A DNA stretch of 63,830 nt, the filler included. It is 7 parts of 7 records of this genome, joined end to end, with 100 filler letters (N's around TTAATTAATTAA, not from the genome) between each part and the next. Parts side by side here need not be neighbours in the genome. Positions count along the whole stretch, not along the records: positions 16,357 to 21,979 come from SRR31147125_11581; 6 more parts are not named here. One strand, given 5' to 3'. The notes beneath the pieces are model-generated. The model was given only the letters and a program-made list of their open reading frames with translations, searched no databases and was not told the DNA's origin. Both the position numbers and the translations under genes were made by a program. Positions 9,860 to 56,774 of the stretch are shown piece by piece (the first letter of the stretch is position 1; each line of letters starts with the position of its first letter).

Positions 9860-9959
9860 NNNNNNNNNNNNNNNNNNNNNNNNNNNNNNNNNNNNNNNNN
9901 NNNTTAATTAATTAANNNNNNNNNNNNNNNNNNNNNNNNNNNNNNNNNNNNNNNNNNNN
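9860..9959. other. Artificial contig linker
   Basis: N-run + TTAATTAATTAA + N-run, 100 nt. Confidence 0.99.
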
Positions 9960-11375
9960 CTCTACTTTCTCGGGATTATCAAACCATAAGTTATCTTGTT
10001 CATACGGATCTTTTTCAAGATTGTAGAGTTGGCCAACAGCTCCAGGTGTCGGTCCTGTCCCACACGGAGGAGGCCATCCGCCGGAATTGTCACAATCAAC
10101 AACTAACTTCCAGTCTTCTTTTCTTATTGAAAAGACTCCAAAACATGAGTGGTGAATTAAGCTTCTTCTTGAAGGAAGTTCACTATCAGGACAGGTAAGC
10201 AGCGGTAAAAAACTGATACTATCTTCGGCTTCATCTTCTTTCAGTTTAACTCCTAAAATATCAGCACACGTAGCAATAAAATCATTCAATCCAACCAGGT
10301 GGCTGCATACAGCACCCTGCTTAATTATTCCAGGCCAACGAATAATAAGTGGCTCACGATGCCCACCTTCCCAAATATGGGCCTTATATCCCTTAAAATT
10401 CCCACAGGACTTATGATTCCAGGTAGAATAACTGGTTTCATCTTCTTCATTATCCCGGTCTCCCGGAAGTGCTCCATTATCACTCGTCACCACAACTATT
10501 GTATTTTCTGCCAGGCCTGTATCTTCAAGCGTATCAATAATTTGTCCGACCATCCAATCAAATAACCAAACAAGGTCACCTCGCGGCCCTGCGGCACTTT
10601 TACCGTGAGCAAATTCCGGTACAACGGCCTCTATACAAGGCTCATGCGGTGCACTAGCAGCCAAATAGAGGAAAAATGGTTCCTCACTATCCTTTCTGGA
10701 CTTGATCCAATCAACTGATTTTTCAGTAAATGTGGTATCAGCACCAGCATGGTTCCATGAAGAAATACTCATCCCGGGACGCCCGGTGAAATGAACTGCT
10801 TCTCTATACTCTGACGGTAAATCAGGAAAGGATTCTCCTTCAATATAACCATAAGGGGGCTGGCAAGTAGAGCATCCAGATGTACCGAAGAAATAATCAA
10901 ACCCCAGAGCAGTCGGCCCCCCGCTGACTCCTGCAGAAAAATCGATCTTTTCCTCATCTTCTCGCGAAGCATCTTTCCATGGTAACGGTCGTGAGAAATT
11001 AAAGGATTCACCCTCTTTCAGTGAATAATTCAGACCTAGATGCCATTTCCCTATGCAAGCCGTTGAGTAACCCTCTTGTTTCAGCATAGATGCCATAGTC
11101 AAACGATCTTTTCCAATTAACGGGGGTTCATAACCATAGAGAACACTCTTCTTCAGTTTCGTCCTCCAGCAATACCTGCCTGTCAGTATTCCATATCTGG
11201 AAGGAGTACAAACAGATGAAACAGAGTGTGCGTCTGTAAACCGTATACCTTCACTAGCAAGTTGATCGATATGAGGAGTTGGTATCCTTGATGATTTGTT
11301 GAAACAACTAACATCACCATATCCCATATCATCAGCTAATATAAAAACAATATTCGGTTTCTTATTTTTCTCCAT
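9960..11375 (-). CDS. Cys-type formylglycine-dependent sulfatase, 3'-truncated at contig end
   Basis: PNIVFILADDMG, CTPSRYGILTG (CxPxR), GKWHLG and SDNG; no obvious signal peptide. Confidence 0.95.
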
Positions 11376-11457
11376 ATTTCTCCACCAGCACTGTATAAAC
11401 TGAATTATCTCAAATCACCAATCAGAAACACTCCACAAACTGTATTCGGATTATCAA

Positions 11458-12342
11458 CTAAAGAAGGTCTTTCATAAGCATATCCAAAGTTTGTTTATCG
11501 CTTTCATGCAACGGCAATTTCGGACTGCTTGAATAATTTCCGACAAGTCCCAAAGAATCCATTACATACTTAAGGGCTTTGTGTGTTTTCCCCTCATATT
11601 CAAGATAGGTAAGCATAGGCAGCATAGTCTTATATATTTCCCACCCTTTCTCCATATCTTTTTCTTTTACAAGTGCGTTAAAGAGAGCAACACACTGCTT
11701 TGGTGCAATATTCCCCAGAACACAGACCCAACCAGTAGCACCCATCACAAAAGATTCATAAGCCATATCTTCCCATCCGCAGAAAATAGTTAATTCATCA
11801 TTTGTTCTTATTCTAATATCGGTAATTCTTTTTATATCTCCGCTGCTCTCCTTGATGTACTGAATATTTGGCAGTTTTGCCAATCTTTCAATGGTTTCAG
11901 GAAGGATGTCGACTTTTGAACTTGACGGATTGTTATAAATCATAATTGGAATAGTTATGTTTTCAGCTATCTGTTTATAATGATAATATATCTCTTCCTG
12001 GTCTGGTGAATAGTAATAAGGGGATAATACCAGCACCCCGGAAGTTCCCTGCTCCTGCAGTTTCAAGGCATTCTCTAAAGTCTTTTCAGTTGTTTCGGCT
12101 GTTGCCCCGGCTATTACCGGCACACGACCTCCGGCTGCATCGAGAACGGTTTTATTGACCTGCAGCTTTTCTTCATCACTGAGACTGGCAAACTCACCGG
12201 TACTGCCCAGTGATATAAGACCATGAACTCCGCCTTCCGATATCAACCATTCAGTATTTTTCTTAATCCCTTCAAAATCTACTTTTTTATCCTTTGTAAA
12301 AGGGGTAACAATAACAACATAGATGCCTTCAAACAGTTTCAT
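11458..12342 (-). CDS. DHDPS/N-acetylneuraminate lyase family class I aldolase
   Basis: GSTGE, YNNP and Schiff-base IKESSGD motifs; ATGA overlap with the AOR stop. Confidence 0.9.
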   Translation of the reverse strand: MKLFEGIYVVIVTPFTKDKKVDFEGIKKNTEWLISEGGVHGLISLGSTGEFASLSDEEKLQVNKTVLDAAGGRVPVIAGATAETTEKTLENALKLQEQGTSGVLVLSPYYYSPDQEEIYYHYKQIAENITIPIMIYNNPSSSKVDILPETIERLAKLPNIQYIKESSGDIKRITDIRIRTNDELTIFCGWEDMAYESFVMGATGWVCVLGNIAPKQCVALFNALVKEKDMEKGWEIYKTMLPMLTYLEYEGKTHKALKYVMDSLGLVGNYSSSPKLPLHESDKQTLDMLMKDLL

Positions 12343-14217
12343 AAGTTCTCCTTTAATCCTAGTTCAGTTAATTTTTGCTTGCTGGGATAGCCATCGTCTA
12401 AACCCCAGTCTCTTGCTGTATAGTATTCATTAAGTAATGAATCAAAATTCTTAATTACACACTCTTCATTATCTTTGTATTTACCTGACACAGGTACAGA
12501 AAACACCCTCTCCGGAAGATTGTCCTCTTCACGACCAAACCCTTCCCTGATGTTAAAAAGCCTCTGGATATTTATCACTCTTTCCCCAACGGACAGCAGT
12601 TCATCCTCATCAACATCCCAACCGGTCAAGGCTGAAAGAATTCTCGAAAGATTTGAAACGGTAATACCGGAATACATAAAGAATTTACAGGTTCCCAGAA
12701 TATCCGGTAAAGACAACCCATCCTGCAGTATCTTTACATCATTACCCTTGCCTTTTTCACTCCATCTATCAACCTTCTCCGGGTCACGAAGCCCATATTT
12801 CTGTAAACCCCAATCCATTTTTCCACTGTCCCAGGCCATTGCCTCTACCGGTTGTATGTGACACATTCCCCTGTTCCCGGTAGCATAAGACAAACCTAAA
12901 GCTTTCCCGGATCTCGGATCGTGGGCCGGACCTTCCAGACCCTTTACATGTACAGCGATTTTCAGAGCTTCAGGTCCCAGTTTTGTCGCAGCCCGCAAAA
13001 CACCTTCAGCAAGCAGTTTCCCGACACCTTCCTGCAATGCAATCATCCGAACTAACAACGGGAGTGCTTTGCTATTTCCCCATTCCAAAAGAGAACTGTC
13101 GTCATCTTCCACGGAAATCAATCCCTTTTCCCGACACTCCATCGCAAAAGCTATTACCGAACCTGCCGATATGGTGTCCAACCCATATTCATTACATAAA
13201 TAGGTACTGTTTATTGCCGCGTCAAGATCATCATTCAGGACATAAGCAGTAAAGCAAGCAATCGATTCGTATTCACAACCACCATGAACAGGTGTTTCAT
13301 AGGGTCCTGATGGGACATGTGCCTTCCTTCCACACGAAATGGAGCAACCCTTGTAGCAGGGATATGGGTTTACTAGGTTATTTTCCTGAAATTTGCTGAA
13401 AATTTCAGGCCCTTTCCCCCAGGAATTTGATTGCCAGTTTTTAGTAGGGAGGTCTCCGGCTTCATCATTGTCAGGCAAATCTCCAATAGTTCCATAATCC
13501 CTAAAACCCGAAGACATGGGATTTTCACGTACTTCTTTATGTGCTTGCCTCAATTCTTGTTTTAATTTTTCAGGAGATGCTTCAGGAACCTCGCTATTTC
13601 CGGAAACAGCAACCCCAATAAGGTTTTTTGATCCGAAAACTGCACCAGCACCAGTTCTGCCTGCTGACCGGTCTTCACACATTACTGTGGAAAACAGGAC
13701 AAGATTCTCACCAGCAGGACCAATGGTTAAAATAGACGAAACAAGAGCCGATTGTTCATCAATTTCCTTCTTTATCTTTCCCTGCTTATCAGAATTCAAT
13801 AGTCCCGATAAATGTCCGGCTTCATGGAATGTGACAACTCCATTCTGTACATTACAATAGACTGGCTCATCCGAAGCTCCTTCAAAAATAACAAAATCAT
13901 ATCCTGCTTTCTTCAGATTGATACCGAAATCACTTCCGACTCTCGCCTGCCCCCATCCTCCTGTCAGCGGGGATTTAAAGCAGATTGATACACTTCCCCC
14001 TCCCGGAACTTTTGCAGGGTAAGAGGTCCAGTTGCCAAGATAATCTTATTATCAGGACTAAGCGCATTAGTATTTGAATCAAGTTCGTCATAGAGTATTT
14101 TTGCACTATATCCCACCCCCCAATGAACTTCCTTAATAGTTTTTCATTAAGATCTTCAATTAAGTAGCTATGTTCTTTTAGATTAATACGCAGTTGTTTG
14201 CCTATATAACCAAACAT
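12339..14217 (-). CDS. Aldehyde:ferredoxin oxidoreductase (W/Mo AOR family), two apparent 1-nt frameshifts near 14115 and 14020
   Basis: N-terminus MFGYIGKQLRINL; shifted frames give FKSPLTGGWG and LKKAGYD; main frame has GRTGAGAVFGSKNL, EYES, GLDTIS and VKGLE. Confidence 0.88.
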
Positions 14218-14436
14218 TTCCCCTCCTATCCCAAACGCTCTATTTTGATCCTTTTGTAAATATCATATAATCTGATACTTCCGTAACAATCCTATCCAAT
14301 CTGAAAAACCTAAAAAACCATATATTTCCTATGGGACAACAACAGCTTCCAGGTCGTGAAATCTTCAGAATTATTCATAAACTTTTAAGTTAACTTCATA
14401 TAATGAATCGATTAGAATCAAAGCAATATATTATTA

Positions 14437-14481
14437 TTGTCTACAAAATATTTTATTCTATTTATTTTTCTTTGTCAACAA
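14437..14481 (-). promoter_or_regulatory. Sigma70-type promoter for the AOR operon, with two TTGTCwACAA boxes
   Basis: Minus strand TTGACA (14478-14473), 17 nt, TAAAAT (14455-14450). Boxes: TTGTCTACAA 14437-14446 and TTGTCAACAA 14472-14481. Confidence 0.6.
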
Positions 14482-14598
14482 TAATAATTAATAATGACAC
14501 TGGTAAGGCTAGATGAGATAGCTATATACTGCCGGACATCAAGCAATTATTGATATTTTAATGAGGAAAAATAATAACTGGGAATTACAACCCGAAGA

Positions 14599-15789
14599 TC
14601 AAACCCGGGAAAAAGCGTTTGACAACATCGTGAAAATTTCATCGATAGATGCAATTTTTGGATTGTTTTCATAATCCGGCAGATCATGGCTATGGTCAGC
14701 AATATCCCGTAATGTATCCATAGTTACATCATAATCACGAAAATTCACCCACATCCCAATCCTTTTCAGGAATTGGTCCATAACTTCCCCTGCCTCCTTT
14801 GAGGCTGCATCATTGCTTAGCTCCGCCAAAGAGTTGTTGAGGATTTTTGTCACTATACCAAATTTATTTTTGGCTGAAGGAGCCGTAAACCTCATGAAAT
14901 CCGGATATGTAAGAGCTAACGATTCACCATGCATTATATGTGGACAGAACCCGCTGATCATCATTCCAATTCCATGGGGGAGCGTTACACCAGCTCCAGC
15001 TATACACAATCCTGCCAGGGTATCCGCCAAAGTCATATTCAATCTGGCTTCTTTTATATCAGAATCACTAATACCCGATTCTGCCTTTGCCCCTAAGACT
15101 GCTATTTCCAGATTATCACTGATAAGCTGTATTGCCTTGAGTGCCAAGGTTTCGATATATGGATTTGAACCTTTATGGATAAAAGCTTCAAAGGCATGGG
15201 CAAACGCATCAAAGCCTGTCGAGGCTGTTATATGTGAAGGAAGGGTTTCCATTAAATCTGGATCAACAATAGCTACTTTAGGAAAAATGTTTTCATGGAA
15301 AATAGCTGATTTTGTATGTGTTTCCATTTCTGTCATAACTGAAACCTGTGTCACCTGTGACCCAGTTCCGCTGGTAGTAGTCACGGATACAATGGGCAAA
15401 GTTGCCTTCGTTGGTTCTTTTTTGAAAAACAGGTAATCCCAGGGAGATCCGGGATGTGTAGCTCCCACCGCTATAGCTTTTGCGGTATCCATACTCGATC
15501 CCCCACCATAACCAATCACGACATCAATATTCAGCTCTTTGGCCAATGCAGAACCTTTTTCAGCACATGCTTTTGTTGGATTTGGTACTACTCCATCATA
15601 ATGAAAGACTTTGACTCCTGCCTTCAGACAAGATGACTTAATCTTTTGGAAGCCAGTCTCAATTTCTGGGAATAAGGGAACTGTTGCGATCAAGGCACGT
15701 TTCCCTAAAGCCGCAACCTCTTCCCCTATCGTCTCTAACTTCCCGTTTCCAAACACTATTTTTGTTGGCTGGTAGTAATTAAATTTCAT
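14599..15789 (-). CDS. Iron-containing alcohol dehydrogenase
   Basis: GGGSSMDTAK, TTSGTGS, DAFAHAFE, PHG and HG metal ligands. Confidence 0.93.
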   Translation of the reverse strand: MKFNYYQPTKIVFGNGKLETIGEEVAALGKRALIATVPLFPEIETGFQKIKSSCLKAGVKVFHYDGVVPNPTKACAEKGSALAKELNIDVVIGYGGGSSMDTAKAIAVGATHPGSPWDYLFFKKEPTKATLPIVSVTTTSGTGSQVTQVSVMTEMETHTKSAIFHENIFPKVAIVDPDLMETLPSHITASTGFDAFAHAFEAFIHKGSNPYIETLALKAIQLISDNLEIAVLGAKAESGISDSDIKEARLNMTLADTLAGLCIAGAGVTLPHGIGMMISGFCPHIMHGESLALTYPDFMRFTAPSAKNKFGIVTKILNNSLAELSNDAASKEAGEVMDQFLKRIGMWVNFRDYDVTMDTLRDIADHSHDLPDYENNPKIASIDEIFTMLSNAFSRV

Positions 15790-15806
15790 AAAATGTCTCT
15801 CCTTGG

Positions 15807-16256
15807 TTAGTTCAACCTATCAACATCAATAAACACTTTCATAGCCTTGTCTTTCTGTTCATCCAGGTATGTATAGGCTTTTTTATACTCATAAAATGGA
15901 AAATGCTTAGTCATCAATGGTTGCAACTGTATTAAACCCTGCTCAATCAACGCAATAGCCTGAAGGTAATCTCGAGTCTGGTACATCGCCGTCCCGATCA
16001 ACCTAAGTTCCCGATCCTGAACCAATCCTAAGTCTACTACCGGTTTCTTACCAAAGACACCTACAACAATTATATCCGTACCTTTTCGAGCATTTACAAC
16101 AGCTGACTCCATAGTATGCTGAACTCCTACACATTCAAGAATCAGATCAGCCCTGTCACTGCCAAAAGCATTCAGTATCGATTCACTTAAATCCTCTTTC
16201 TCGGGATTTACAATAAAATCTATTCCTGTTTTTTTCGCCAAACTCAATCTGAAATC
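15807..16256 (-). CDS. Zinc-binding (MDR) dehydrogenase, C-terminal part, 5'-truncated
   Basis: ADLILECVG, IIVVGVF and terminal KVFID; frame runs to the contig edge. Confidence 0.85.
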   Translation of the reverse strand, partial: DFRLSLAKKTGIDFIVNPEKEDLSESILNAFGSDRADLILECVGVQHTMESAVVNARKGTDIIVVGVFGKKPVVDLGLVQDRELRLIGTAMYQTRDYLQAIALIEQGLIQLQPLMTKHFPFYEYKKAYTYLDEQKDKAMKVFIDVDRLN

Positions 16257-16356
16257 NNNNNNNNNNNNNNNNNNNNNNNNNNNNNNNNNNNNNNNNNNNN
16301 TTAATTAATTAANNNNNNNNNNNNNNNNNNNNNNNNNNNNNNNNNNNNNNNNNNNN
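16257..16356. other. Artificial contig linker
   Basis: N-run + TTAATTAATTAA + N-run. Confidence 0.99.
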
Positions 16357-16374
16357 TGATTAATCGATTAATCA
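16357..16374. promoter_or_regulatory. Perfect 18-bp palindrome, putative LacI-family operator
   Basis: TGATTAATCGATTAATCA with central CG, downstream of the lacI-family gene. Confidence 0.75.
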
Positions 16375-16410: not shown

Positions 16411-17406
16411 TCAAGTTGTTTCTCTTTTTATCAATTTTACCGGGATAACAGTTTTATCATCATTTGTTGTTTTTCCATTAATCAAATCCAAGAGAACAGT
16501 TGCAGCCTTTTTTCCCATTAATTGTTTATCTTGGTTTACAGTTGTTACTTTAGGATCAACATACTTTGTAACCTCAATATTATCATAACCTATTACCTTA
16601 ACTTCGCCAGGTACTTTGATTTGATGTTTTTTTAAGGATGCTAGTGCACCGATAGCTAACCAATCTGTCATTGCAAATATTCCATCAAATTCTGTACTTG
16701 ATTCAATTATTTTATCAACACACTCTTCCGCACTTACTGCACTTACCGATATTTTATAGATATTTTCTTCATCTAATTCAGCATCATATTTTTCATATGC
16801 TTTTTTAAGTCCGCTAATACGCTGAGTCATCGTTGATAACTCTCGATAATCTCGAAGTACTATAATATTTTTACATCCTTTGTCAAGGAGCTCCTCACCA
16901 GCAATCAAACCTCCATTAAAGTTATCTGATTCAATAAATGGATCCTCTGATTTTTCTGGTTTTCTATCAATATATGTGATTGGTATGTGGCGTTGTAGGT
17001 TGTCTCTAAGCGTCAAAGTATCACCACCTAAATCTATTAACCCATCAACACCTTTTGCCTCAAGATCTGCCATACATTGAAGAGCTTTCTGTTTATCTTC
17101 ACTGGTATTTGAAATATAAACCGAATAACCTTTCGGATAACAATAATTCTCAATTCCTAGAATTATCTTGGAGAAAAAATCATTAGTAATATCGGGAACA
17201 ATAACCCCTATACTGTAACTTTTCATTGTTCTCAAACTTTTAGCCAAAACATTAGATCTATAACCAAGATCCTTAATAGCAGTTTCCACTTTCCTTCTCG
17301 TTTCCATAGAAAAACGACCATTACCGTTTATTACATTTGAAACTGTGGTAGTAGAAACTCCAGCATACTCCGCTAAATCTTTAATCGAAATTGCTTTCAT
17401 TTGCAT
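16411..17406 (-). CDS. LacI-family transcriptional regulator
   Basis: HTH SIKDLAEYAGVSTTTVSNVIN, hinge LAKSL and C-terminal VIGYDN. Confidence 0.96.
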   Translation of the reverse strand: MQMKAISIKDLAEYAGVSTTTVSNVINGNGRFSMETRRKVETAIKDLGYRSNVLAKSLRTMKSYSIGVIVPDITNDFFSKIILGIENYCYPKGYSVYISNTSEDKQKALQCMADLEAKGVDGLIDLGGDTLTLRDNLQRHIPITYIDRKPEKSEDPFIESDNFNGGLIAGEELLDKGCKNIIVLRDYRELSTMTQRISGLKKAYEKYDAELDEENIYKISVSAVSAEECVDKIIESSTEFDGIFAMTDWLAIGALASLKKHQIKVPGEVKVIGYDNIEVTKYVDPKVTTVNQDKQLMGKKAATVLLDLINGKTTNDDKTVIPVKLIKRETT

Positions 17407-17433: not shown

Positions 17434-17451
17434 AGATTAATAGATTAATCT
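17434..17451. promoter_or_regulatory. Putative LacI operator copy
   Basis: AGATTAATAGATTAATCT. Confidence 0.6.
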
Positions 17452-17570: not shown

Positions 17571-17588
17571 TGCGTAATCGATTAATCA
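17571..17588. promoter_or_regulatory. Putative LacI operator copy
   Basis: TGCGTAATCGATTAATCA, 16/18 identical to the perfect palindrome. Confidence 0.65.
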
Positions 17589-17646: not shown

Positions 17647-17664
17647 TGATTAATCGATTAATCG
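17647..17664. promoter_or_regulatory. Putative LacI operator copy
   Basis: TGATTAATCGATTAATCG, 17/18 identical to the perfect palindrome. Confidence 0.7.
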
Positions 17665-17957
17665 TTTTGTTAAAAGTCAATAAGTTCTATAATTATACAT
17701 TTCTTCCAAATAAAGTTTCTCTTACAAGAGTTATACCTCATAATTTTTCAATAGTCAATTTTTTATTTAAAAAATAAATTTCCTATAATTTTTTCGTGTT
17801 TTATGGTAATATGTTTTTATTATAGCCTTTATGTCTCCTTTAAAAGTTTATTACGACGACATATTTATATATAATTTTTGTAATTTGATTATAGCTACTA
17901 GCAATTCATAAACGATAAATAAATTTGCAACATAATAATAAAAGGAGGAGTAAAAGT

Positions 17958-20900
17958 ATGCAAAGTTTTATGATGTTGTTACAAAAGATGGGAAACGAAA
18001 ATGAAACATCTCCAAGGGAGTTATTGTGCGGAGAACTGGAGTATATTGCAAAGAGGTTTAATAACGATATCACTCTAAAAGAGGAGCTAAAAACTTTTGA
18101 AGAGGGTAGGTTTATTGAGTGTGAAGTTTTAATTAAAACAAGTGATGATAGTTTAGGCATCCTTGTTGATATTAAAAATGGGGTATTCACAATTTCAGAA
18201 CCTAAAGAAACAAAAGTAAAGGGAGCCACAGTAATTTTTGGAAGTGAGAAAGATATCAAAGAGTATATGAACGCTGATTTTGAAGCTGAAACTTTAAAAT
18301 TCCTTGCAACTGATATAGTTGTAGAGGGAAATCCAGCTCATTTTTCACTATTCAACTATCTTTTAAGTTGTCTTCCTGAATATCTAAGAACTAAAGAGGA
18401 GCTTATTAAAAAGAGTAAAAAGCAAAACGAAGTATTCAAATTTGAAATTGCATCAAAAGCAGGAAAACCTCAAAGAGGAATGAGAAATGAAAGATTAAAA
18501 AACAGATCAGAAGAGATGTTAAACACTCAAAACGTTGATGTCGGGGTTAAATGGATTAAAAAACCATATATTCCACAATACAACTTGGAGGATTTCCCTA
18601 GACTTGAGAAATTTAGAGAGTCTTACTTAAATGAGATTCCATCTTTATCAGAGGAACAAGGAGAACTTTTGACTGATTATTATTTAGAAAATGGTTATTA
18701 TATAAACAAAAATGATAAAACTCCTTGGAATCCATTTCTGAGATCAGCAAATGCATTTCACTATTTAATGACTAATAAAAAACCTCTAATAAGAGAAAAC
18801 GATCTATTGGCTGGAACTATGACAACTGATCCAATGTGCGGTTGTATTGCACAACCTTACACAGTTGGCTGGAAACTGTGGGGAGATTTAAGAACTCTTG
18901 AAAATAGAGAGGATGAACCCTTTAAAGTTAGTGATAGAACATTGGAAGTATTACATAAAAAGGTATTCCCATTTTGGATTGACAAACATGTGGAAGCTGT
19001 TTGGAAGACAAAAGTAGATGAAGATTCTAAATTCCCTGGAATAATTGATAGAAAATCTTTTACAATTCCTTGGGGACTATTGTCACTTAATCCAGGTTGT
19101 CCAGGTTTTGGGAAAGTTGTTAAAAAAGGCTTAAAAGCTATTAGAGAAGAGATAAAAACTAAAATAGAGGAGTTTACTGCTAACGAAAAATTATCACTAC
19201 AAGAGAAAAAGAATAAAATTGATAGTTTAACAGCAATGGACTTAACACTTAAAGGTATCTCAAACTATACTAAAAATCTGGCAAATATGATAGAACAAGA
19301 GATAAAAGAAACTAATGATTCAACAAGAATATCTGAACTGGAATCAATTAAAGATATATTACTAAAAGTGCCTGATAATCCAACTGAAACTGTTTACGAA
19401 GCTATTCAGGTATTGTGGATAATGTTCATTGGAGTAGGTCTTGACAGCATGAATGAAACAATGTCTATAGGTAGGTTGGATCAAATTCTTCAACCTTATT
19501 TTGAAAGTGATATGAGCTTATTAAAAGATGAGAAGGAAAGAGAAAACTATTTAAAAGATGTACTTGAATTAGTTGGGTGTTTCTTCATGAGAATCACAAG
19601 TAACAGGTATGCTACTGATACACAGTTTACTTGGCAACATTCAGGATCGCCTGCGGATACATCGATTATTATTGGTGGAGTAACTCCAGACGGTGATGAC
19701 GCTGTTAATGATATGACTTATGTTATTTTAAAGGTTGTGGAGATGTTAAGCACAGATGACCCTGACATGGACGCAAGATATATGACAGGTGTAAATAGTA
19801 AAACATATCTTAAAAGAGTTTGTGACGTTAACTACCTAACTTGTGGAACTCCGGCTATACATAATGATAAAGCTATTATCGATGGTTGGATGAAAAATAA
19901 CCCTGACTGGGATATAAGGGATATGAGAGATTGGGTACCTTGTGGATGTGTTGAGCCAGTTATAGCTGGTAAACATTTTGCCGCTCCAGCTGATCTCGAC
20001 AGTAATTTCACAGTTGCACTGGAATTAGCTTTAAATAACGGAAGACATCCTAAGTGGGATAACACTGTAAAAGACAATAAAATTGGCTTGGAGACTGGTG
20101 AGGTGGAAAGTTTTGAACATTTTGATGATTTCTTTGAAGCATTTGAAAAACAGTTCAAAAATTACTTCTCTAATGCCATAAAAGATGTTTCTTTTAAAAT
20201 TGCTGAAGCTCAAAAAGAAGCAATGCCTGCTCCGCTATACTCCACTCTGCTAGAGGGTTGTATCGAAGAGGGAGCTGGAATGCTTGAAGGTGCTGTAAAA
20301 TATAACACTGCCGCCTCTTCCCTGATTGGATTCTCAGATGTAATAGATTCATTACTTTCAATTAAAAAAATAGTTTTCGAAGACAAAAAGTTTAATTTTA
20401 ATGACCTAAAAGCTGCTGTAGATTCTGATTTTGAAACTGAAGATGGTAGAAAAATTTATACCGCCATCAGGCACTCTGTGAATAAATTTGGTTCAGGTGA
20501 AGATGAAGGTGTTGACATGGCTAGAAGGGTTACAAAAATGGTAGGAGATTTCTTCCACTCAAAAACTAACCCAAGAGGTGGGCACTATACTTCCGGCTAT
20601 AAAACAACAAGTAGCCATACTGCATTTGGAATGGTGGCAGGAGCTCTTCCATCTGGTCGTAGAGCAAATATGCCGTTTACACCTGGATTGACACCAAGTC
20701 CACAAGCAACTAAAAATATAATGAATAACCTCTTGGATGTAGCGGCTCTAGATTCTTCAACATGTGAGAATAGTTTTGCTTTTAACGTTAGGTTATCTTT
20801 CTCCAAACATAACTCTTATGAGCAAAATATTGATCTTGTAACAAACTATGTGGAAACATACTGCAAAAATGGTGGGATGCAGATACAATTAAATATGGTT

Positions 20901-21047
20901 GATACTGATACTCTTATTGATGCAATGGCAAATCCAGAACATTATCCTGATCTTATAGTTAGAATTTCAGGATATACAGGATTTTTTACAAGAATGCAGA
21001 GAGAATTGCAGTTAGAAGTTGTAGGAAGAACTGAATTTGCACTGTAA
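17958..21047 (+). CDS. Glycyl radical enzyme with an N-terminal SCP2-like extension
   Basis: RBS AGGAGG before ATG 17958. Core motifs SIGRLDQ, Cys loop CGCVEP, PSGR and Gly loop VRISGY. Confidence 0.92.
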   Translation: MQSFMMLLQKMGNENETSPRELLCGELEYIAKRFNNDITLKEELKTFEEGRFIECEVLIKTSDDSLGILVDIKNGVFTISEPKETKVKGATVIFGSEKDIKEYMNADFEAETLKFLATDIVVEGNPAHFSLFNYLLSCLPEYLRTKEELIKKSKKQNEVFKFEIASKAGKPQRGMRNERLKNRSEEMLNTQNVDVGVKWIKKPYIPQYNLEDFPRLEKFRESYLNEIPSLSEEQGELLTDYYLENGYYINKNDKTPWNPFLRSANAFHYLMTNKKPLIRENDLLAGTMTTDPMCGCIAQPYTVGWKLWGDLRTLENREDEPFKVSDRTLEVLHKKVFPFWIDKHVEAVWKTKVDEDSKFPGIIDRKSFTIPWGLLSLNPGCPGFGKVVKKGLKAIREEIKTKIEEFTANEKLSLQEKKNKIDSLTAMDLTLKGISNYTKNLANMIEQEIKETNDSTRISELESIKDILLKVPDNPTETVYEAIQVLWIMFIGVGLDSMNETMSIGRLDQILQPYFESDMSLLKDEKERENYLKDVLELVGCFFMRITSNRYATDTQFTWQHSGSPADTSIIIGGVTPDGDDAVNDMTYVILKVVEMLSTDDPDMDARYMTGVNSKTYLKRVCDVNYLTCGTPAIHNDKAIIDGWMKNNPDWDIRDMRDWVPCGCVEPVIAGKHFAAPADLDSNFTVALELALNNGRHPKWDNTVKDNKIGLETGEVESFEHFDDFFEAFEKQFKNYFSNAIKDVSFKIAEAQKEAMPAPLYSTLLEGCIEEGAGMLEGAVKYNTAASSLIGFSDVIDSLLSIKKIVFEDKKFNFNDLKAAVDSDFETEDGRKIYTAIRHSVNKFGSGEDEGVDMARRVTKMVGDFFHSKTNPRGGHYTSGYKTTSSHTAFGMVAGALPSGRRANMPFTPGLTPSPQATKNIMNNLLDVAALDSSTCENSFAFNVRLSFSKHNSYEQNIDLVTNYVETYCKNGGMQIQLNMVDTDTLIDAMANPEHYPDLIVRISGYTGFFTRMQRELQLEVVGRTEFAL

Positions 21048-21960
21048 AGAATCATTAATATTTGATATAAAGGGAAACTCCCTTGAAGATGGGCCGGGAA
21101 TTAGAACTGTGCTCTTCTTCAAGGGTTGCCCCCTTGATTGCATCTGGTGTCATAATCCAGAGGGAAAAAGCTTTAAGAGTGAGCTTTTGTTTCAAAACGA
21201 AAACTGTATTAAGTGCAAAGAATGCGTTAAAGTCTGTGAAACAGGTGCAATCGAACTTGGAGAAGTGATCAATATTAATAGAGAGAAATGCATCAAATGT
21301 TTTAAATGTAGTGAAGTTTGTCCCTCTATTTCTTTAAAAAAATGTGGAGAAAATGTTAAGCAAAATGATATAATAAAGAAAGTAGTAAAATATAAAGATT
21401 TTTATATAGAATCAGATGGTGGAGTAACTTTGTCAGGAGGAGAACCATTACAACATGTAAAAAAGTTATCTTCATTAGTAAAAGAGCTAAAAAATAAGGA
21501 GATTAATATTCTTATTGAAACCTCAGGTTATTTTGACATGGACGAAGTAGAAATAAATATTCTTCCTTATGTCGACACTATCTATTATGATATAAAACTT
21601 ATCAATCAAAATGATCATCAAAAATTTTGCGGTACTGATAATAGTAAAATCTTAAATAATTTTATAAAATTAAAGCAGCTGGTTGAAAAGTATCATATTA
21701 TGCTTCTCCCTAGAACTCCTTTAATTCCAAATATTACAGACACAGCAAAAAATATAGATAATATAATTAAATTTTATAACAAACATAATATATCTACAGC
21801 CTCTTTGCTACCTAACAATCCTATTTGGTTTGATAAAAATGAACAATTGAATCTAGAGAATAGATTAATCGGTAATCAAGAGGTAAAAGAGTTTTATAAC
21901 ATGGATAAATTCAAAAAATTAATTAAACTATTTAATCAAAATAGGATAGAAATTATATAA
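21037..21960 (+). CDS. Glycyl-radical enzyme activase (radical SAM with ferredoxin-like insert)
   Basis: DGPGIRT, CPLDCIWCHNPE, two CxxCxxCxxxC motifs and GGVTLSGGEP; overlaps the GRE stop. Confidence 0.95.
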   Translation: MHCKESLIFDIKGNSLEDGPGIRTVLFFKGCPLDCIWCHNPEGKSFKSELLFQNENCIKCKECVKVCETGAIELGEVININREKCIKCFKCSEVCPSISLKKCGENVKQNDIIKKVVKYKDFYIESDGGVTLSGGEPLQHVKKLSSLVKELKNKEINILIETSGYFDMDEVEINILPYVDTIYYDIKLINQNDHQKFCGTDNSKILNNFIKLKQLVEKYHIMLLPRTPLIPNITDTAKNIDNIIKFYNKHNISTASLLPNNPIWFDKNEQLNLENRLIGNQEVKEFYNMDKFKKLIKLFNQNRIEII

Positions 21961-21979: not shown

Positions 21980-22079
21980 NNNNNNNNNNNNNNNNNNNNN
22001 NNNNNNNNNNNNNNNNNNNNNNNTTAATTAATTAANNNNNNNNNNNNNNNNNNNNNNNNNNNNNNNNNNNNNNNNNNNN
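21980..22079. other. Artificial contig linker
   Basis: N-run + TTAATTAATTAA + N-run. Confidence 0.99.
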
Positions 22080-41628: not shown

Positions 41629-41728
41629 NNNNNNNNNNNNNNNNNNNNNNNNNNNNNNNNNNNNNNNNNNNNTTAATTAATTAANNNNNNNNNNNNNNNN
41701 NNNNNNNNNNNNNNNNNNNNNNNNNNNN
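41629..41728. other. Artificial contig linker
   Basis: N-run + TTAATTAATTAA + N-run. Confidence 0.99.
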
Positions 41729-48820: not shown

Positions 48821-48920
48821 NNNNNNNNNNNNNNNNNNNNNNNNNNNNNNNNNNNNNNNNNNNNTTAATTAATTAANNNNNNNNNNNNNNNNNNNNNNNN
48901 NNNNNNNNNNNNNNNNNNNN
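48821..48920. other. Artificial contig linker
   Basis: N-run + TTAATTAATTAA + N-run. Confidence 0.99.
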
Positions 48921-50395: not shown

Positions 50396-51372
50396 ATGCC
50401 CAAATCCCTTGAAGTTCTCGAAGAGGAGTCGGAAAACTTATTCAGCCTTTCGACATGGACGAATTCAGAGCTTTCAATCGTGAAAAAGAAAAAGCTCTTG
50501 TCGATAAGCGTATGGATGAAAGCGAAGCTATCAAGAAGTTCATTCACGAAAACGACTATGTCGGAATAGAACTTTACGGCACAGTGCGCTGTCCTATGTC
50601 GCTTACTCGTGAGATTATCAGACAAGGATACACAAAGCTGCGAACAGCAGGACAGGGTGTTTATGAATCTGATCTTTTAGCCGCTGCAAACTGCATCAAG
50701 GAAATGGACTGGACCTACATCGGTCTTGAAGTTTACGGAGTGTCGAGCAATTTACGCCGCACTGTAGAATCCGGTTATGTCGAATCGATCTGCGAATGGT
50801 CGAATGCCGCTCTCGCATGGAGATTCAAAGCCGCTGCAATGGGAGTGCCGTTTTTGCCGGTAAGATCGATGCTTGGAACAGACACTTTGAAATATTCGGC
50901 AGCCAAAGTCATCGAATGTCCGTTTACAGGTGAACCGATAGCACTGATCCCAGCTCTTGTACTCGATGTTGGAGTTATCCACGTTAACCGCGCCGACAAG
51001 TTTGGTAATTGCCAAATAGATGGAATTACCGGTTTCGCAGCAGAGATGGCAAGAGCATCGAAGCGACTTATCATCTCCGCCGAGGAAATAGTCTCGGACG
51101 AGGAAATCCGCAAGCAACCTGATAAAACGATAATTCCATACTATCTCGTCGATGCAGTTGTTCACGCTCCATTCGGTTCGCATCCGGGTGAGATGAACGG
51201 AGTTTACGAGCGGGATGAAACGCACATAAAGACTTATTACGAAGACTCGAAAGACGCCGGAAAAACGAAAGACTATCTCGACAAATGGGTATATGGTGTG
51301 AAAAACCACGAAGAATACCTTGAGCTGGTCGGTAAAGAGACATTAGAGTCTTTGAAGATAAAGGAGGGTTAG
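50396..51372 (+). CDS. Family I CoA-transferase subunit A (GctA/PcaI-like); true start probably 50396 with a 1-nt frameshift near 50425
   Basis: RBS GAGGAGG before ATG 50396; AAAMGVPFLP, ADKFGN and APFGSHP. Confidence 0.88.
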
Positions 51373-51375
51373 GTT

Positions 51376-52143
51376 ATGAGTGAACCAAGATACAATGGAT
51401 CAGAACTGATGATCTGCCTTTCAAGCCGACTAATGAATGACAAATCAACTGCATTTATCGGCACCGGAATTCCAATGTTAGCGGCATCACTTGCCCAAAA
51501 AATGCATGCTCCTGACCTAACGGCTGTCTTTGAATTCGGCGGAACAGGCGCAATCCTCGAAAAGCTTCCTCTGGCAGTTGGTGATATGCGTACCTACAAC
51601 AAGGGACTGCACGCAACTGGAATCTGCGACATTATGGAAACCGCTCAACGCGGGTTTATCGAATATGGGTTTTTAGGCGGTGCGCAGGTCGATCCATATG
51701 GCAACCTGAATACGACCGTAATAGGCGATCACGACAATCCGAAAGTTCGCCTGCCGGGTTCCGGTGGTGGAAACGATGTCGGTTCGGCTTGCTGGCAAAC
51801 GATTTACATTATGCGACAATCGGCAAGAAGCTTTGTTCCCAAAGTCGATTTTCTAACAACTCCCGGATATCTTGACGGACCCGGAGCCCGTGAAAAAGCA
51901 GGACTGCCGAAAAATTCCGGACCATACAGAATCGTCACGAATTTTTGCATACTCGGCTTTGACGATGAAACCAAGCGCATGAAACTTTTGTCACTTAATC
52001 CTGGTGTGACGGTGGATGATGTCGTCAAAAACACGGGCTTTGAACTCATAATCCCTGATACTATCGGACAAAACGAAGAACCGACTGACGCTGAATTAAA
52101 GATTCTCAGAGAAGAAGTCGATAAGGAAAAATATTACATTTAA
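51376..52143 (+). CDS. Family I CoA-transferase subunit B (GctB/PcaJ-like)
   Basis: FIGTGIP, GAQVDPYGNLN and RLPGSGG. Confidence 0.92.
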   Translation: MSEPRYNGSELMICLSSRLMNDKSTAFIGTGIPMLAASLAQKMHAPDLTAVFEFGGTGAILEKLPLAVGDMRTYNKGLHATGICDIMETAQRGFIEYGFLGGAQVDPYGNLNTTVIGDHDNPKVRLPGSGGGNDVGSACWQTIYIMRQSARSFVPKVDFLTTPGYLDGPGAREKAGLPKNSGPYRIVTNFCILGFDDETKRMKLLSLNPGVTVDDVVKNTGFELIIPDTIGQNEEPTDAELKILREEVDKEKYYI

Positions 52144-52173
52144 TCGGGTCAGAAACCCTTAGTTAGACAGAAA

Positions 52174-53079
52174 ATGATACTCAGAAATTTTGATGAACTG
52201 ATCGGAGTTGCCAAAACCCGTGGCAAACGAGTGGTTGCTGTGGCTCGCTCCGAAGATGAACTTGTACTTAAAGGTCTTAAGCTTGCCTATGACGATGGTC
52301 TTATCGAGCCGGTACTTATCGGAAATAAAACAAGCATTAAAAAACTTCTTGATGAGCATGATCTTCCATCATGGCAGATTTATGGTGTCGATGGCGACAA
52401 CGGAGATTGCGCAAAAGCAGCAGTTGGAATAGTCAAGTCCGGTGAGGCTGATTTACTAATGAAGGGCCACATGAATACCGGTACGCTTATCTCTGAAGTA
52501 CTGAACAAAGATACAGGATTGGAGCGTCACGGTATTTTATCTCACATCGCTCTGGTCGAGATTCCAGCTTATCACAAATTATTCGGTACAACTGATGGTG
52601 GACTGACTCTCATGCCGAGCTTCGATCAAAAGGTCGGAATCGTCAAGAATGCCATCAAAACCTTTCATGATCTTGGTTATGAAAAACCTAAAATCGGCCT
52701 GCTTGCCTATGTTGAAAAGGTAAGAAAAAACGATATTGAAACCGGAGACTGGGGCAAAATTGCCGAGATGGCCGATAACGGAGATTTCGGTGAAGCTTGT
52801 GTCGATGGTCCTTTGGCGATGGACTTATGCTTAAGTCAGGAAGCTAAAGAAGTAAAAGAATACGAAAGCGATGTCGCTGCCGATGTGGATGTTATCGTTT
52901 CTCCAAATATTACAGCTTGTAACGCAAGCACTAAAGCTTTGATCCTTATTGGTGGTCGAGGAGCAGGAGTGGTTGTTGGAGCTTCGGCTCCCATCGTTGC
53001 CTTGTCGCGTGGCGATTCACCTCGAATCCGGCTTTGTTCGCTTGCTGCCGGAATTGCAATGTTACCCATGGGCTCATAA
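52174..53079 (+). CDS. ptb: Phosphate butyryl/acyltransferase
   Basis: LLMKG, LSH, VDGPLAMD and LSRGD; adjacent to buk. Confidence 0.85.
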   Translation: MILRNFDELIGVAKTRGKRVVAVARSEDELVLKGLKLAYDDGLIEPVLIGNKTSIKKLLDEHDLPSWQIYGVDGDNGDCAKAAVGIVKSGEADLLMKGHMNTGTLISEVLNKDTGLERHGILSHIALVEIPAYHKLFGTTDGGLTLMPSFDQKVGIVKNAIKTFHDLGYEKPKIGLLAYVEKVRKNDIETGDWGKIAEMADNGDFGEACVDGPLAMDLCLSQEAKEVKEYESDVAADVDVIVSPNITACNASTKALILIGGRGAGVVVGASAPIVALSRGDSPRIRLCSLAAGIAMLPMGS

Positions 53080-54182
53080 TGAGTGTGAATATTCTGGTAA
53101 TAAATCCGGGGGCGACTTCTACAAAGCTCGCTTTATATAAAGACGAAAAAGAAATCCACAACGAATCGGTCACGCATGACAGACGTGATCTCGATATGCT
53201 TACCAATGTTTCGCATCAGGTGAAATATCGCATGATGGCAATAGGTCAGCTTATTCACAAATGGAATCTCGATATAGAATCCATTGATGCAGTTGCCGCT
53301 CGTGGTGGTCCTCTTATGCCACTTCCTGCCGGAACTTATGCTGTCGATGCCGAGATGGTAATAGACATTATGCAAGGCAACGTTATGGCAGATCACCCAA
53401 GTTCTCTTGGTGCTGTGATGGCCAGAAAGCTTATGGCGGCGCGTGAGAAACCGGCTTTTATCATTGATCCTGTATGTGTGGATGAGATGATGGACATTGC
53501 GAGGATTTCAGGATTAGCAGATATCGAGCGAAAATCGTTATGGCATGCTCTTAATTGCAGATATACTGCAAGGCTTGCAGCTAAAGCGCAGAATATGGAT
53601 TTCGATAAATCGAAAATTGTCGTCGCTCATCTTGGTTCAGGGATTAGCGTCGTAGCACTAAAGAATGGCAAAGCGATTGATGTTTCTAACGCAAACGAGC
53701 AAGGCCCGTTTTCCGTTGAAAGAGCGGGTGCTTTGCCTGTTACATCTTTGGCAAAATATTGTGCCAACTCGAATCAGGATGCCAAGGATCTTTCTAAAAA
53801 GCTTACCAAACAAAGCGGTCTGATTGATTACCTTGGCACATCGAGTTTGTTTGAAGTAGAAAATAAAATCGAGAGCGGGGATGATTACGCAAAATTGATT
53901 TTCGACGCTATGGCCTATCAGACAGCAAAAGAAATTGGTGCAATGAGTGCTGCACTAAAAGGTGCGGATCTGATCGTTTTGACAGGAGGCATGGCGAATT
54001 CCGAAAGACTTGTAAATACCATAAAGGAATACATTGCAAATCTTGCGGATATTCATATTATAGCAGGTGAAAAAGAAATGGAAGCTCTTGCTATGGGAGC
54101 TTTACGGGTAATAAATGAAAATGAAAGAAGTTTATCTTACAGTGAAATAAAAAATGGAAAACTGAAAGGAGCATCGGAATGA
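53079..54182 (+). CDS. buk: Butyrate kinase
   Basis: LVINPGATSTK, ARGG, HALN, AHLGSGISV and LTGGMA; TAATG overlap with ptb. Confidence 0.94.
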   Translation: MSVNILVINPGATSTKLALYKDEKEIHNESVTHDRRDLDMLTNVSHQVKYRMMAIGQLIHKWNLDIESIDAVAARGGPLMPLPAGTYAVDAEMVIDIMQGNVMADHPSSLGAVMARKLMAAREKPAFIIDPVCVDEMMDIARISGLADIERKSLWHALNCRYTARLAAKAQNMDFDKSKIVVAHLGSGISVVALKNGKAIDVSNANEQGPFSVERAGALPVTSLAKYCANSNQDAKDLSKKLTKQSGLIDYLGTSSLFEVENKIESGDDYAKLIFDAMAYQTAKEIGAMSAALKGADLIVLTGGMANSERLVNTIKEYIANLADIHIIAGEKEMEALAMGALRVINENERSLSYSEIKNGKLKGASE

Positions 54183-56014: not shown

Positions 56015-56601
56015 TGAGTAACAAAACAACAAACGTCCTCGTAGTTGGTGTTGGTGGACAAGGTATTATTCTTGCCGGTGAAATTCTCGCTAAAGTGGCA
56101 TTAAACGCCGGACTCGATGTCAAAAAAAGTGAAGTTCACGGTATGGCACAGCGCGGTGGAAGCGTTAATTCGCAAGTCCGAATCGGTGACACGGTTCGCT
56201 CACCCATTATTCCGCAAGGCGAGACGGACATCTTGCTTGCTTTTGAAAAGCTCGAACCTCTGCGCTGGATTTCATATTGCAACAAAAATACTAAAGCGAT
56301 AATAAGCGATCATAAGATTCATTCCTTGACAACAGCTACAAGTCTTCAGACTTATCCCGATGGAGTGGATGAAGAACTGAATGCAAAATTCAAGAATCTG
56401 CATCTGATACCAGCAACACAAATGGCTATCGATATTGGTAATCCTCGTGTTGTAAACGTGATTTTCCTGGGGTTGATGGCTCGTATGATGGACTTCCCCA
56501 AAGAAGCCTGGATCGATGCACTAAAAGAGCGATTGCCACAAAAAATTATTGATGTGAACATGAAAGCCTTTGCGGCGGGATATGCCTTGATGGATGAATA
56601 G
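56014..56601 (+). CDS. iorB: Indolepyruvate:ferredoxin oxidoreductase beta subunit
   Basis: GVGGQG and SEVHGMAQRGGSV. Confidence 0.95.
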   Translation: MSNKTTNVLVVGVGGQGIILAGEILAKVALNAGLDVKKSEVHGMAQRGGSVNSQVRIGDTVRSPIIPQGETDILLAFEKLEPLRWISYCNKNTKAIISDHKIHSLTTATSLQTYPDGVDEELNAKFKNLHLIPATQMAIDIGNPRVVNVIFLGLMARMMDFPKEAWIDALKERLPQKIIDVNMKAFAAGYALMDE

Positions 56602-56674: not shown

Positions 56675-56774
56675 NNNNNNNNNNNNNNNNNNNNNNNNNN
56701 NNNNNNNNNNNNNNNNNNTTAATTAATTAANNNNNNNNNNNNNNNNNNNNNNNNNNNNNNNNNNNNNNNNNNNN
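56675..56774. other. Artificial contig linker
   Basis: N-run + TTAATTAATTAA + N-run. Confidence 0.99.

Follow-up and report, generated by a model that had tools for sequence, protein, structure and literature searches.

Which reaction would call for a glycyl radical enzyme (GRE) with a lipid-carrier-like domain built into its own chain? The question is raised by one gene in the stretch of DNA analysed here (the window, 63,830 nucleotides), which encodes P0001, a GRE whose N terminus resembles sterol carrier protein 2 (SCP2), and which overlaps the gene of a radical-SAM activase. An earlier note, made from the sequence alone, had described a GRE of ~1030 residues with the Cys loop WVPCGCVEP and the Gly loop VRISGY, followed by an overlapping activase with a ferredoxin-like insert, and both descriptions were confirmed. 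The evidence set out below makes it probable that P0001 is an SCP2-fed radical 1,2-eliminase acting on a long-chain amphiphile.

A complete glycyl radical enzyme with its own activase

The gene and its parts are placed as follows (AlphaFold2 scores are the predicted local distance difference test, pLDDT, and the predicted template modelling score, pTM).

17958..21047, plus strand: SCP2-fused GRE P0001, 1029 aa, ATG start, TAA stop; AlphaFold2 pLDDT 94.9, pTM 0.95
18000..18377, plus strand: N-terminal SCP2-fold domain, residues ~15–140, from profile and structure matches
18378..18572, plus strand: helical linker, residues ~141–205, with DSSP helices at 140–166 and 175–188
18597..20630, plus strand: PFL-like barrel core, residues 214–891; Pfam PF02901, E 6e-126; Foldseek TM 0.93–0.94 (target-normalised) to propanediol dehydratase (PD), HypD and glycerol dehydratase (GD)
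19092..19094, plus strand: Pro379, at the position of GD His164 in the alignment to 1r8w
19620..19640, plus strand: putative cap helix 555–561, touched by SCP2 in the two-part model; named from strand order and sections 4.1 and 4.3 of PMC13450708
19932..19958, plus strand: Cys loop WVPCGCVEP, residues 659–667 (Cys664, Glu666), from the family alignment
20601..20603, plus strand: Lys882, at the position of GD Tyr640 in the alignment to 1r8w
20676..20990, plus strand: glycyl radical domain, residues 907–1011, PF01228; Gly1005 at 20970–20972 in VRISGY (1001–1006)
21037..21960, plus strand: radical-SAM GRE activase with a two-cluster ferredoxin insert, 307 aa, TTG start; 11-nt overlap with the end of the GRE gene

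An AGGAGG ribosome site at 17943–17948 precedes the ATG at 17958, and the protein has the 10-stranded barrel, the Cys loop and the C-terminal Gly loop of the PFL-like GRE superfamily. The activase, which scores 269.8 against a TIGR02494 cut-off of 174.35, carries CxxxCxxC at 31 and two ferredoxin motifs, CxxCxxCxxxC, at 57 and 85. It qualifies as the cognate radical-SAM activase; among relatives, 67 of 95 full-length loci have an activase less than 250 bp away. Throughout the family alignment (124 members; 134 before near-duplicates were removed at 92%), Cys664 and Glu666 are each kept in 120 rows and Gly1005 in 123. P0001 does break the family-conserved residues His549, Thr677, Gly779 and Gly786, as a decaying or inactive paralogue might. 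We nevertheless consider such decay very improbable, as the open reading frame (ORF) is full, the ribosome site and the coupled activase are intact and the catalytic Cys, Glu and Gly are retained; Asn499 and Lys882 are also found in the relatives P0003 and P0054.

The core falls outside the curated families

All 12 NCBIfam matches of the P0001 core were below their cut-offs. The glycerol/propanediol dehydratase model TIGR01774 came highest of those cited (PFL2-3; 398.6 versus 678.2), followed by HypD (NF043068; 373.6 versus 1100), CutC (TIGR04394; 348.8 versus 1050), the C–S lyase HpsG and the sulfonate dehydratase HpfG (NF048011, 325.6, and NF048009, 297.1; cut-offs 1000), the aryl-acetate decarboxylases IAD (NF033718; 233.7 versus 1100) and HPAD (NF033715; 184.5 versus 1150) and pyruvate formate-lyase (TIGR01255; 115.2 versus 994.2), whose adjacent Cys-Cys is replaced by CGC. 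Judged by these scores, the core is in no CHARACTERISED family. In Foldseek searches with the full model, propanediol, hydroxyproline and glycerol dehydratases came first, at 25–27% identity, and MASS, BSS and HPAD last, at 18–20%; identities of the core to the solved GREs listed span 18–27%. P0001 has the CxE motif of the eliminase/isomerase class (C664-V-E666), although this motif is not diagnostic of eliminases because decarboxylases share it. The description of P0001 in the earlier note as an uncharacterised GRE of the GCxE rather than the PFL type thus holds, and no known enzyme's active-site set is kept; its statement that characterised GREs are all shorter does not, as solved CutC 9f3w has 1150 residues.

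Could the enzyme instead add fumarate to alkanes or other hydrocarbons? Alkane and alkene degraders are among the hosts of the family, and Archaeoglobus PFL2, once proposed as a MASS, is the top PDB sequence match of the Desulfatibacillum member. However, MASS and BSS stand near the bottom of the PDB matches, and Asp679 occupies the position of the fumarate-binding Arg of BSS, which we take to lie at Cys+15. No small Fe–S subunit gene of the X-succinate synthase (BSS, MASS) type lies upstream on the GRE contig, which ends after the activase, and no conserved Cys-rich small subunit was found in the window or in 95 loci, unrelated Cys-rich ORFs being present in 8 of the 95. Hydrocarbon activation is therefore the least probable of the alternatives considered.

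The N-terminal domain has an SCP2 fold

A Pfam search of P0001 did not detect SCP2 and returned only Alkyl_sulf_C, at E 0.17. Across the family, PF02036 was matched by 31 of 70 N-termini at E<=1 (best 7.6e-5), and the family N-terminal profile retrieved three SCP2 structures (human and rabbit-type) at E 0.008–0.011 among four matches at E<=10, the fourth being unrelated. Folded alone, the domain reached pLDDT 86, and when the model was ranked against 48,161 PDB chains, ranks 1–10 were all SCP2-fold structures (Z 7.0–10.2; root-mean-square deviation 2.6–5.5 over 100–117 residues), with the next row at Z 5.6. Its five-strand sheet with five helices matches that of SCP2 structures. Known carriers (human 8af2, Aedes 2ksi with palmitate, the alkyl-sulfatase-type YjcS 4pdx and UbiJ 6h6n) share the fold of residues 15–140 at Z 8.8–10.2; they differ in sequence (9–18% identity), and the P0001 domain is fused to a GRE. 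The homologue P0029 bears the automatic label 'SCP2 sterol-binding domain-containing protein'. The N-terminus of P0001 therefore has an SCP2 fold, as the earlier note had read from its first ~150 residues and had proposed to check by folding. By analogy with the carriers, the domain would bind lipid.

The fusion is a real, uncharacterised architecture. The front-fused proteins group as a single clade of 126 (support 1.0) in a FastTree of 241 cores, and a quick IQ-TREE (48 chosen rows, SH-aLRT support, midpoint root, no bootstrap) agrees, with SH-aLRT 100. The only row of a characterised type in the trees, the above-cut-off CutC P0134, falls far outside this clade. Full-text searches pairing GRE with SCP2, sterol-carrier or ether-lipid terms, which did not extend to subscription papers or supplements, found no description of SCP2-GREs; such sources could mention them, for example as a network cluster. 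A June 2026 review (PMC13450708) contains 'SCP', 'sterol' and 'ether' 0 times; in the sections consulted, small polar molecules are the substrates of the GRE eliminases, and the accessory modules are only small Fe subunits. What is new here is the active site of the subclade described below as B2 and the predicted docking of SCP2 at the channel.

The domain is paired with GREs in several arrangements

A genome scan gave at least 607 matching stretches, 594 of which proved to be GRE relatives of some kind, and the best 80 were kept. Hosts among these best 80 of at least 607 include Smithella, Syntrophaceae, Desulfobacterales, Desulfatibacillum alkenivorans, Desulfosudis oleivorans, Spirochaetota, Actinomycetota and Bacteroidales, with two matches in the D. 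alkenivorans genome and four in that of D. oleivorans. Many SCP2-GRE relatives are in fatty-acid-degrading anaerobes, and the family is frequent among lipid-degrading lineages. Its distribution is patchy: of 121 genomes sampled from the Desulfatibacillum order, 20 have the domain, 16 in long ORFs, as do 2 of 61 from a Bacteroidales family.

The domain is also shuffled relative to the core. A hidden Markov model of the N-terminal domain matches the C-termini of the sister-clade GREs P0179, P0080, P0087 and P0106 (iE 1e-9 to 3e-7) and P0075 (0.003). In all four genomes that have the domain in a short ORF, that ORF is a gene of its own, 147–171 residues long, directly after an unfused GRE; locus L118 shows the same split layout by coordinates, its small gene having been dropped by the ORF filter. 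A more distant GRE clade (P0098, P0101) carries a Pfam-type SCP2, and a profile comparison of the P0098 domain with that of the P0001 family detected no similarity (probability 0.2%). A second, separate recruitment of SCP2 to GREs is therefore suggested by the sequences.

Several genomes hold more than one SCP2-GRE, in tandem at L053 and L080 or as three to four matches in G002, G084 and G132; in the tandem pairs, the two genes carry different motifs following the Cys loop (GHTGSIL versus GHTNCMM type). The catalytic Cys/Glu or the Gly-loop motif is apparently lost in P0067, P0068, P0027, P0073, P0084 and P0106, and Cys664 is absent in 4 of the 124 aligned rows; these motif-less members, one of which is in the tandem pair L080, are possible non-catalytic partners. 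Outside the SCP2-GRE family, P0103 (1095 aa) has an activase fused ahead of the GRE core.

The active site of P0001 has lost the dehydratase histidine

Sorting the 124 aligned members by active-site residues gave three types, with one row outside all of them. Type A (71 rows) has His379, Ala/Thr500, Met/Leu681 and Trp882; type B1 (16 rows) has Glu/Gln379, Asp499-Asp500, Glu681 and Trp882; and type B2 (36 rows, P0001 included) has Pro379, Asp/Glu500, Asp679, Asp681 and Arg/Lys882. Position 379, which partly defines the groups, is Pro in 36/36 B2 rows and His in 71/71 A rows; position 882 is Arg in 33 and Lys in 3 of the 36 B2 rows and Trp in 86 of 87 A and B1 rows. In the quick IQ-TREE, B2 forms a single clade (SH-aLRT 100) within B1, and both lie within A on a long branch. 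B2 is a derived subclade in which the dehydratase His has been lost and carboxylates have been gained. P0001, P0003 and P0054 (59% and 53% identical to P0001, respectively) form a sub-branch with Asn499 and Lys882 (SH-aLRT 99).

The nearest solved enzymes share parts of this arrangement. B12-independent glycerol dehydratase 1r8w and the propanediol dehydratases 9rco and 5i2g have the same barrel (Foldseek ranks 1–10, TM 0.87–0.94 by target), CxE and a ferredoxin-type activase; they differ in being 25–26% identical, in lacking SCP2 and in acting on small polar substrates. Position 379 aligns with GD His164, the proposed general acid that protonates the leaving OH, and 882 with Tyr640. At GD His281, Tyr339, Asp447 and Tyr640, which we take to be substrate contacts, P0001 has Glu, Ser, Ala678 and Lys882. 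HypD 6vxc and HpyG 8id1 likewise have CxE; Glu500 stands at the position of the HypD acid, presumably Asp278, and HpyG shares Glu at position 379 with B1 and Asp at position 681 with B2, its substrate being an N-methyl amino acid. These two are 25–27% identical to P0001, which scores 374 bits versus 1100 for HypD, lacks His379 and carries SCP2. CutC (5fau, 9f3w) provides a precedent for C–N elimination and the best PDB match of the B2 profile, and the position of its Thr502 is Thr in 114 of 124 SCP2-GRE rows, but P0001 scores 349 bits versus 1050 and has acids in place of the CutC aromatic cage. Finally, Archaeoglobus fulgidus PFL2 (2f3o) is the best PDB match of the Desulfatibacillum member (E 2e-111) and resembles subclade A in its cap-helix and pre-β3 motif; it differs in having no fused SCP2 and in keeping the His and Tyr, and is 23% identical to P0001. 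According to PMC13450708, CutC is the only C–N eliminase and the function of Archaeoglobus PFL2 is unknown.

Because the acid His is lost and carboxylates are gained, an ammonium leaving group would be favoured, and in B2 the residues of the active site speak more for a head group with an amine. The same lipid-fed eliminase might instead expel oxygen, either dehydrating a long-chain vicinal diol or cleaving the ether of a 1-O-alkylglycerol. Its substrate would be an alkane-1,2-diol, an alkylglycerol or the 3,4-diol of phytosphingosine, and the ether route would give hydroxyacetone and a fatty alcohol, the C3 product being usable by a fermenter. The nearest folds are propanediol and glycerol dehydratases, YbiW and PflD break C–O ring ethers by CxE chemistry, and the ancestral subclade A retains His, for which Lys882 or a protonated Glu500 could stand in as the acid. 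On the other side, Pro replaces the GD acid itself in P0001, and all four of the other GD positions listed above are changed. We regard an oxygen leaving group as a doubtful variant of the eliminase.

The basic residue at 882, present in 36/36 B2 rows, could alternatively hold the carboxylate of a long-chain hydroxy or oxo acid, P0001 then being a C–C lyase or decarboxylase; GRE decarboxylases also have Cys-x-Glu (HPAD Cys503/Glu505). Family scores for this chemistry are the lowest, however (IAD 234/1100, HPAD 185/1150), known decarboxylases require an aryl-stabilised radical, and P0001 is without the adjacent Cys-Cys of PFL. This alternative is distinctly improbable.

SCP2 is predicted to dock at the substrate channel

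The placement of the domain on the core was examined by two-chain prediction of residues 14–168 against 200–1029, both parts coming from one protein, in three runs with three controls. The docking score was 0.91 in three runs, and the best of the controls reached 0.01; 51 of 78 solved complexes reach the 0.91 mark, against 2 of 108 mismatched pairs. The runs share at least 77% of contacts, with a partner pLDDT of at least 73. To our knowledge, there is no solved GRE–SCP2 structure that the predictor could remember. In the model, SCP2 contacts the core surface at 305–318, 331–350, 360–367, 554–560, 699–705 and 889–893, with 554–556, 559–560 and 889–893 at channel-mapped elements. In sections 4.1 and 4.3 of PMC13450708, the substrate channel runs between the cap helix, helix α8′ and the loop after β1, and is covered by the β subunits of BSS and MASS. 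Going by strand order in the model, we assign 555–561 as the cap helix and 886–893 as α8′; the contacted cap helix and helix after strand 8 would then be two of the three BSS channel elements named in section 4.3. The SCP2 domain is thus predicted to sit at the mouth of the substrate channel, a position that fits lipid delivery but also plain gating.

Plain gating would make SCP2 a structural gate or solubility cap, comparable to BSS-β and MASS-β, which cover the same channel, and the substrate would be small and polar (a hydroxy-amino acid, an amino sugar or a polyol), perhaps under the control of the adjacent LacI regulator. The highly polar pocket of P0001, the sugar-type LacI with palindromes in the shared intergenic region, the fermenter-like hosts of B2 and the existence of Eis-type SCP2-like domains all suit such a role. 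Against it, the core-facing SCP2 columns are 90–100% hydrophobic across the 124 rows, though this is expected of any folded core; two SCP2 types without sequence similarity are both attached to GREs; the family is common among lipid degraders; and LacI is not a recurring neighbour. We consider a gate without a lipid role unlikely.

Gene neighbours differ between subclades

Neighbours were surveyed at 112 classified loci, many of them near-duplicates (A 58, B1 15, B2 35 and 4 outside the types). The 58 A loci contain an activase in 40, a TetR gene in 26 and short-chain dehydrogenase/reductases (SDRs), some of them unrelated, in 16. These SDRs are of a classical type and of an extended, 3-beta-HSD-like type, fused in L038. 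The classical SDR has a putative likeness to 3-ketodihydrosphingosine reductase (KDSR/TSC10): its structure matches place TSC10 8jat at rank 5, tied with hydroxybutyrate dehydrogenases and with the longest match among the top five; it scores 129 against the NF049977 cut-off of 400 (rank 21), with no match at E<=1e-20 in a separate search. The SDR occurs in 10 of 16 fusion-bearing genomes versus 6 of 105 others (Fisher p 4e-7, uncorrected for kinship); the SDR model was built from GRE-adjacent genes, and the association concerns subclade A, not B2.

Class-III aminotransferases are present in three subclade-A loci. At L016:1456-10997 (= L124), from Smithellaceae, a small SCP2-like gene, a TPP (thiamine diphosphate) lyase, a Zn-dehydrogenase, a class-III aminotransferase, a second small gene, an APC permease, the SCP2-GRE and its activase lie in a run; the lyase is 2-hydroxyacyl-CoA-lyase-like but below cut-off, and the second small gene was judged SCP2-like only by eye. 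From its gene content, this run is a candidate pathway for a long-chain amine or amino alcohol. A likeness to the fumonisin-degradation gene cluster was also considered, but no listed paper mentions 'fumK'. The neighbours of A loci would fit the processing of lipid carbonyls and amines, but P0001 itself belongs to another subclade. A class-III aminotransferase paired with DUF6206 lies near the GRE in L038:1323-3604 and L044:5516-7783, from distant hosts; DUF6206 had been read by eye as a kinase, a reading left unsupported, with no PDB match.

The 35 B2 loci contain an activase in 29 and a 170-aa 'transporter suffix' membrane protein in 11, and B2 looks like a mobile two-gene cassette. One oxygen-sensitive B2 enzyme lies with its activase on a 4090-bp contig in the assembly of an aerobe, Mycobacterium pinniadriaticum (L004), through either transfer or contamination.

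A lipid-fed 1,2-elimination is the favoured reaction

The SCP2 fold, the channel docking, the front, rear and split pairings, the hosts and the CxE motif in 120/124 rows together argue for the lipid-fed eliminase proposed at the outset. Radical relay from Gly to Cys is established GRE chemistry, and the activase would install the radical on Gly1005, from which it would pass to Cys664. SCP2, docked over the channel, would hold or pass on the alkyl tail, bringing the polar head to the active site. The thiyl radical would then abstract H from the carbinol carbon, Glu666 would deprotonate the OH, the adjacent heteroatom would leave, and Cys664 would give H back, yielding an aldehyde or ketone; we infer these 1,2-elimination steps from the CxE eliminase motif. 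In B2, no His is available for a leaving OH, and the carboxylates of Glu500, Asp679 and Asp681 would line the pocket. The substrate may be a sphingoid-like amino alcohol, whose anionic group, if it has one, Lys/Arg882 could hold. In the most likely form of the reaction, a vicinal long-chain amino alcohol would lose ammonia, a proposal that we hold tentatively. The hydrophobic substrate proposed in the earlier note gains indirect support from the predicted docking, the recurrent pairing with SCP2 and the hosts, but nothing specific favours a sterol or bile acid.

Several observations weigh against this proposal. Ranks 12–20 of the structure search include the SCP2-like domain of Eis-type acetyltransferases, for which we know of no lipid role. 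Residues at the predicted interface show no more conservation than those elsewhere (core 0.62 versus 0.65; SCP2 0.52 versus 0.47), and the docking paired two parts of one chain. P0001 departs from B2 at Asn499, Asn549, Pro677, Lys882 and Ser886, and the acidic residues could merely pair with Arg/Lys882. The hosts of B2 include Bacteroidales, and the LacI of the GRE contig has named relatives only in Bacillota; these are mostly fermenters, which do not oxidise fatty chains. SDRs occur in 0 of 35 B2 loci versus 16 of 58 A loci; the hints from neighbours therefore bear on subclades other than that of P0001, and no pathway gene lies on the GRE contig (16357–21979). The assignment of the substrate, finally, is drawn from sequence and structural models.

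The contig and its regulator

The window consists of seven contigs of differing composition joined by N-linkers.

16411..17406, minus strand: divergent LacI-family regulator, neighbour of the GRE gene
9860..9959, 16257..16356, 21980..22079, 41629..41728, 48821..48920 and 56675..56774: N-linkers with a TTAATTAATTAA core

The GRE contig spans 16357–21979 (5.6 kb) and holds only the LacI gene, the GRE and the activase. Because the contigs are joined by linkers, genes outside these limits are not GRE context: the sulfatase, aldolase, aldehyde:ferredoxin oxidoreductase and alcohol dehydrogenases to the left of 16357 and the fab genes to the right of 21979, considered as such context, belong to other contigs. 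GC content ranges from 0.32 to 0.45 between contigs, with tetranucleotide correlations <=0.46, and by gene content they resemble different organisms (Bacteroidota-like, Spirochaete-like and Bacillota-like). On one other contig, 9960–16256 (minus strand) may be a cluster for sugar acids or sulfated sugars: it encodes a Zn-dehydrogenase fragment, an Fe-alcohol dehydrogenase, a DHDPS-type aldolase, a sulfatase and the aldehyde:ferredoxin oxidoreductase, whose N-terminal domain looks incomplete. On another, 50455–56601 encodes, by eye, a CoA-transferase pair, a phosphate butyryltransferase, a butyrate-kinase-like gene and indolepyruvate oxidoreductase subunits.

The LacI-family regulator probably stands outside the GRE module, its cluster not being among the recurring neighbours listed for GRE relatives. 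It is 59–62% identical to unnamed best matches and ~52% or less to named ones (Clostridium, Caloramator, Bacillus); as these are all Bacillota, the host of the contig may be a low-GC anaerobic member of that phylum. The palindrome TAATCGATTA, with a central CG that we take to be a feature of LacI-type operators, has exact copies at 16361–16370, 17575–17584 and 17651–17660 and a copy with one mismatch at 17438–17447. All three exact copies in the window lie on the GRE contig, on either side of the LacI gene, and are probably operators of the adjacent regulator; one-mismatch copies are not above chance window-wide (8 versus 4.2 expected; 9 of 100 shuffles). A promoter scan found 3 sites versus 5.0 expected, no excess.

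Implications for anaerobic lipid metabolism

A bolder proposal, which we offer with considerable doubt, is that the GREs partnered with SCP2 radiated as anaerobic lyases of lipid head groups and are the first GRE eliminases to act on long-chain lipids, their His-less branch having evolved from a dehydratase into a primary-amine C–N lyase, deaminating sphingoid or sulfonolipid (capnine-type) backbones without oxygen or pyridoxal phosphate. The idea is testable: the cultured sulfate reducer D. alkenivorans DSM 16219 has a member, each gene comes with an activase of its own, and the three active-site variants provide a built-in comparison. If true, a lipid-carrier module at the channel, whether fused in front, fused at the rear or encoded separately, would extend GRE chemistry to membrane-type lipids. 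Such enzymes would explain anaerobic attack on head groups that block β-oxidation, and would constitute a missing anoxic sink for sphingoid and sulfonolipid backbones in sediments and digesters.

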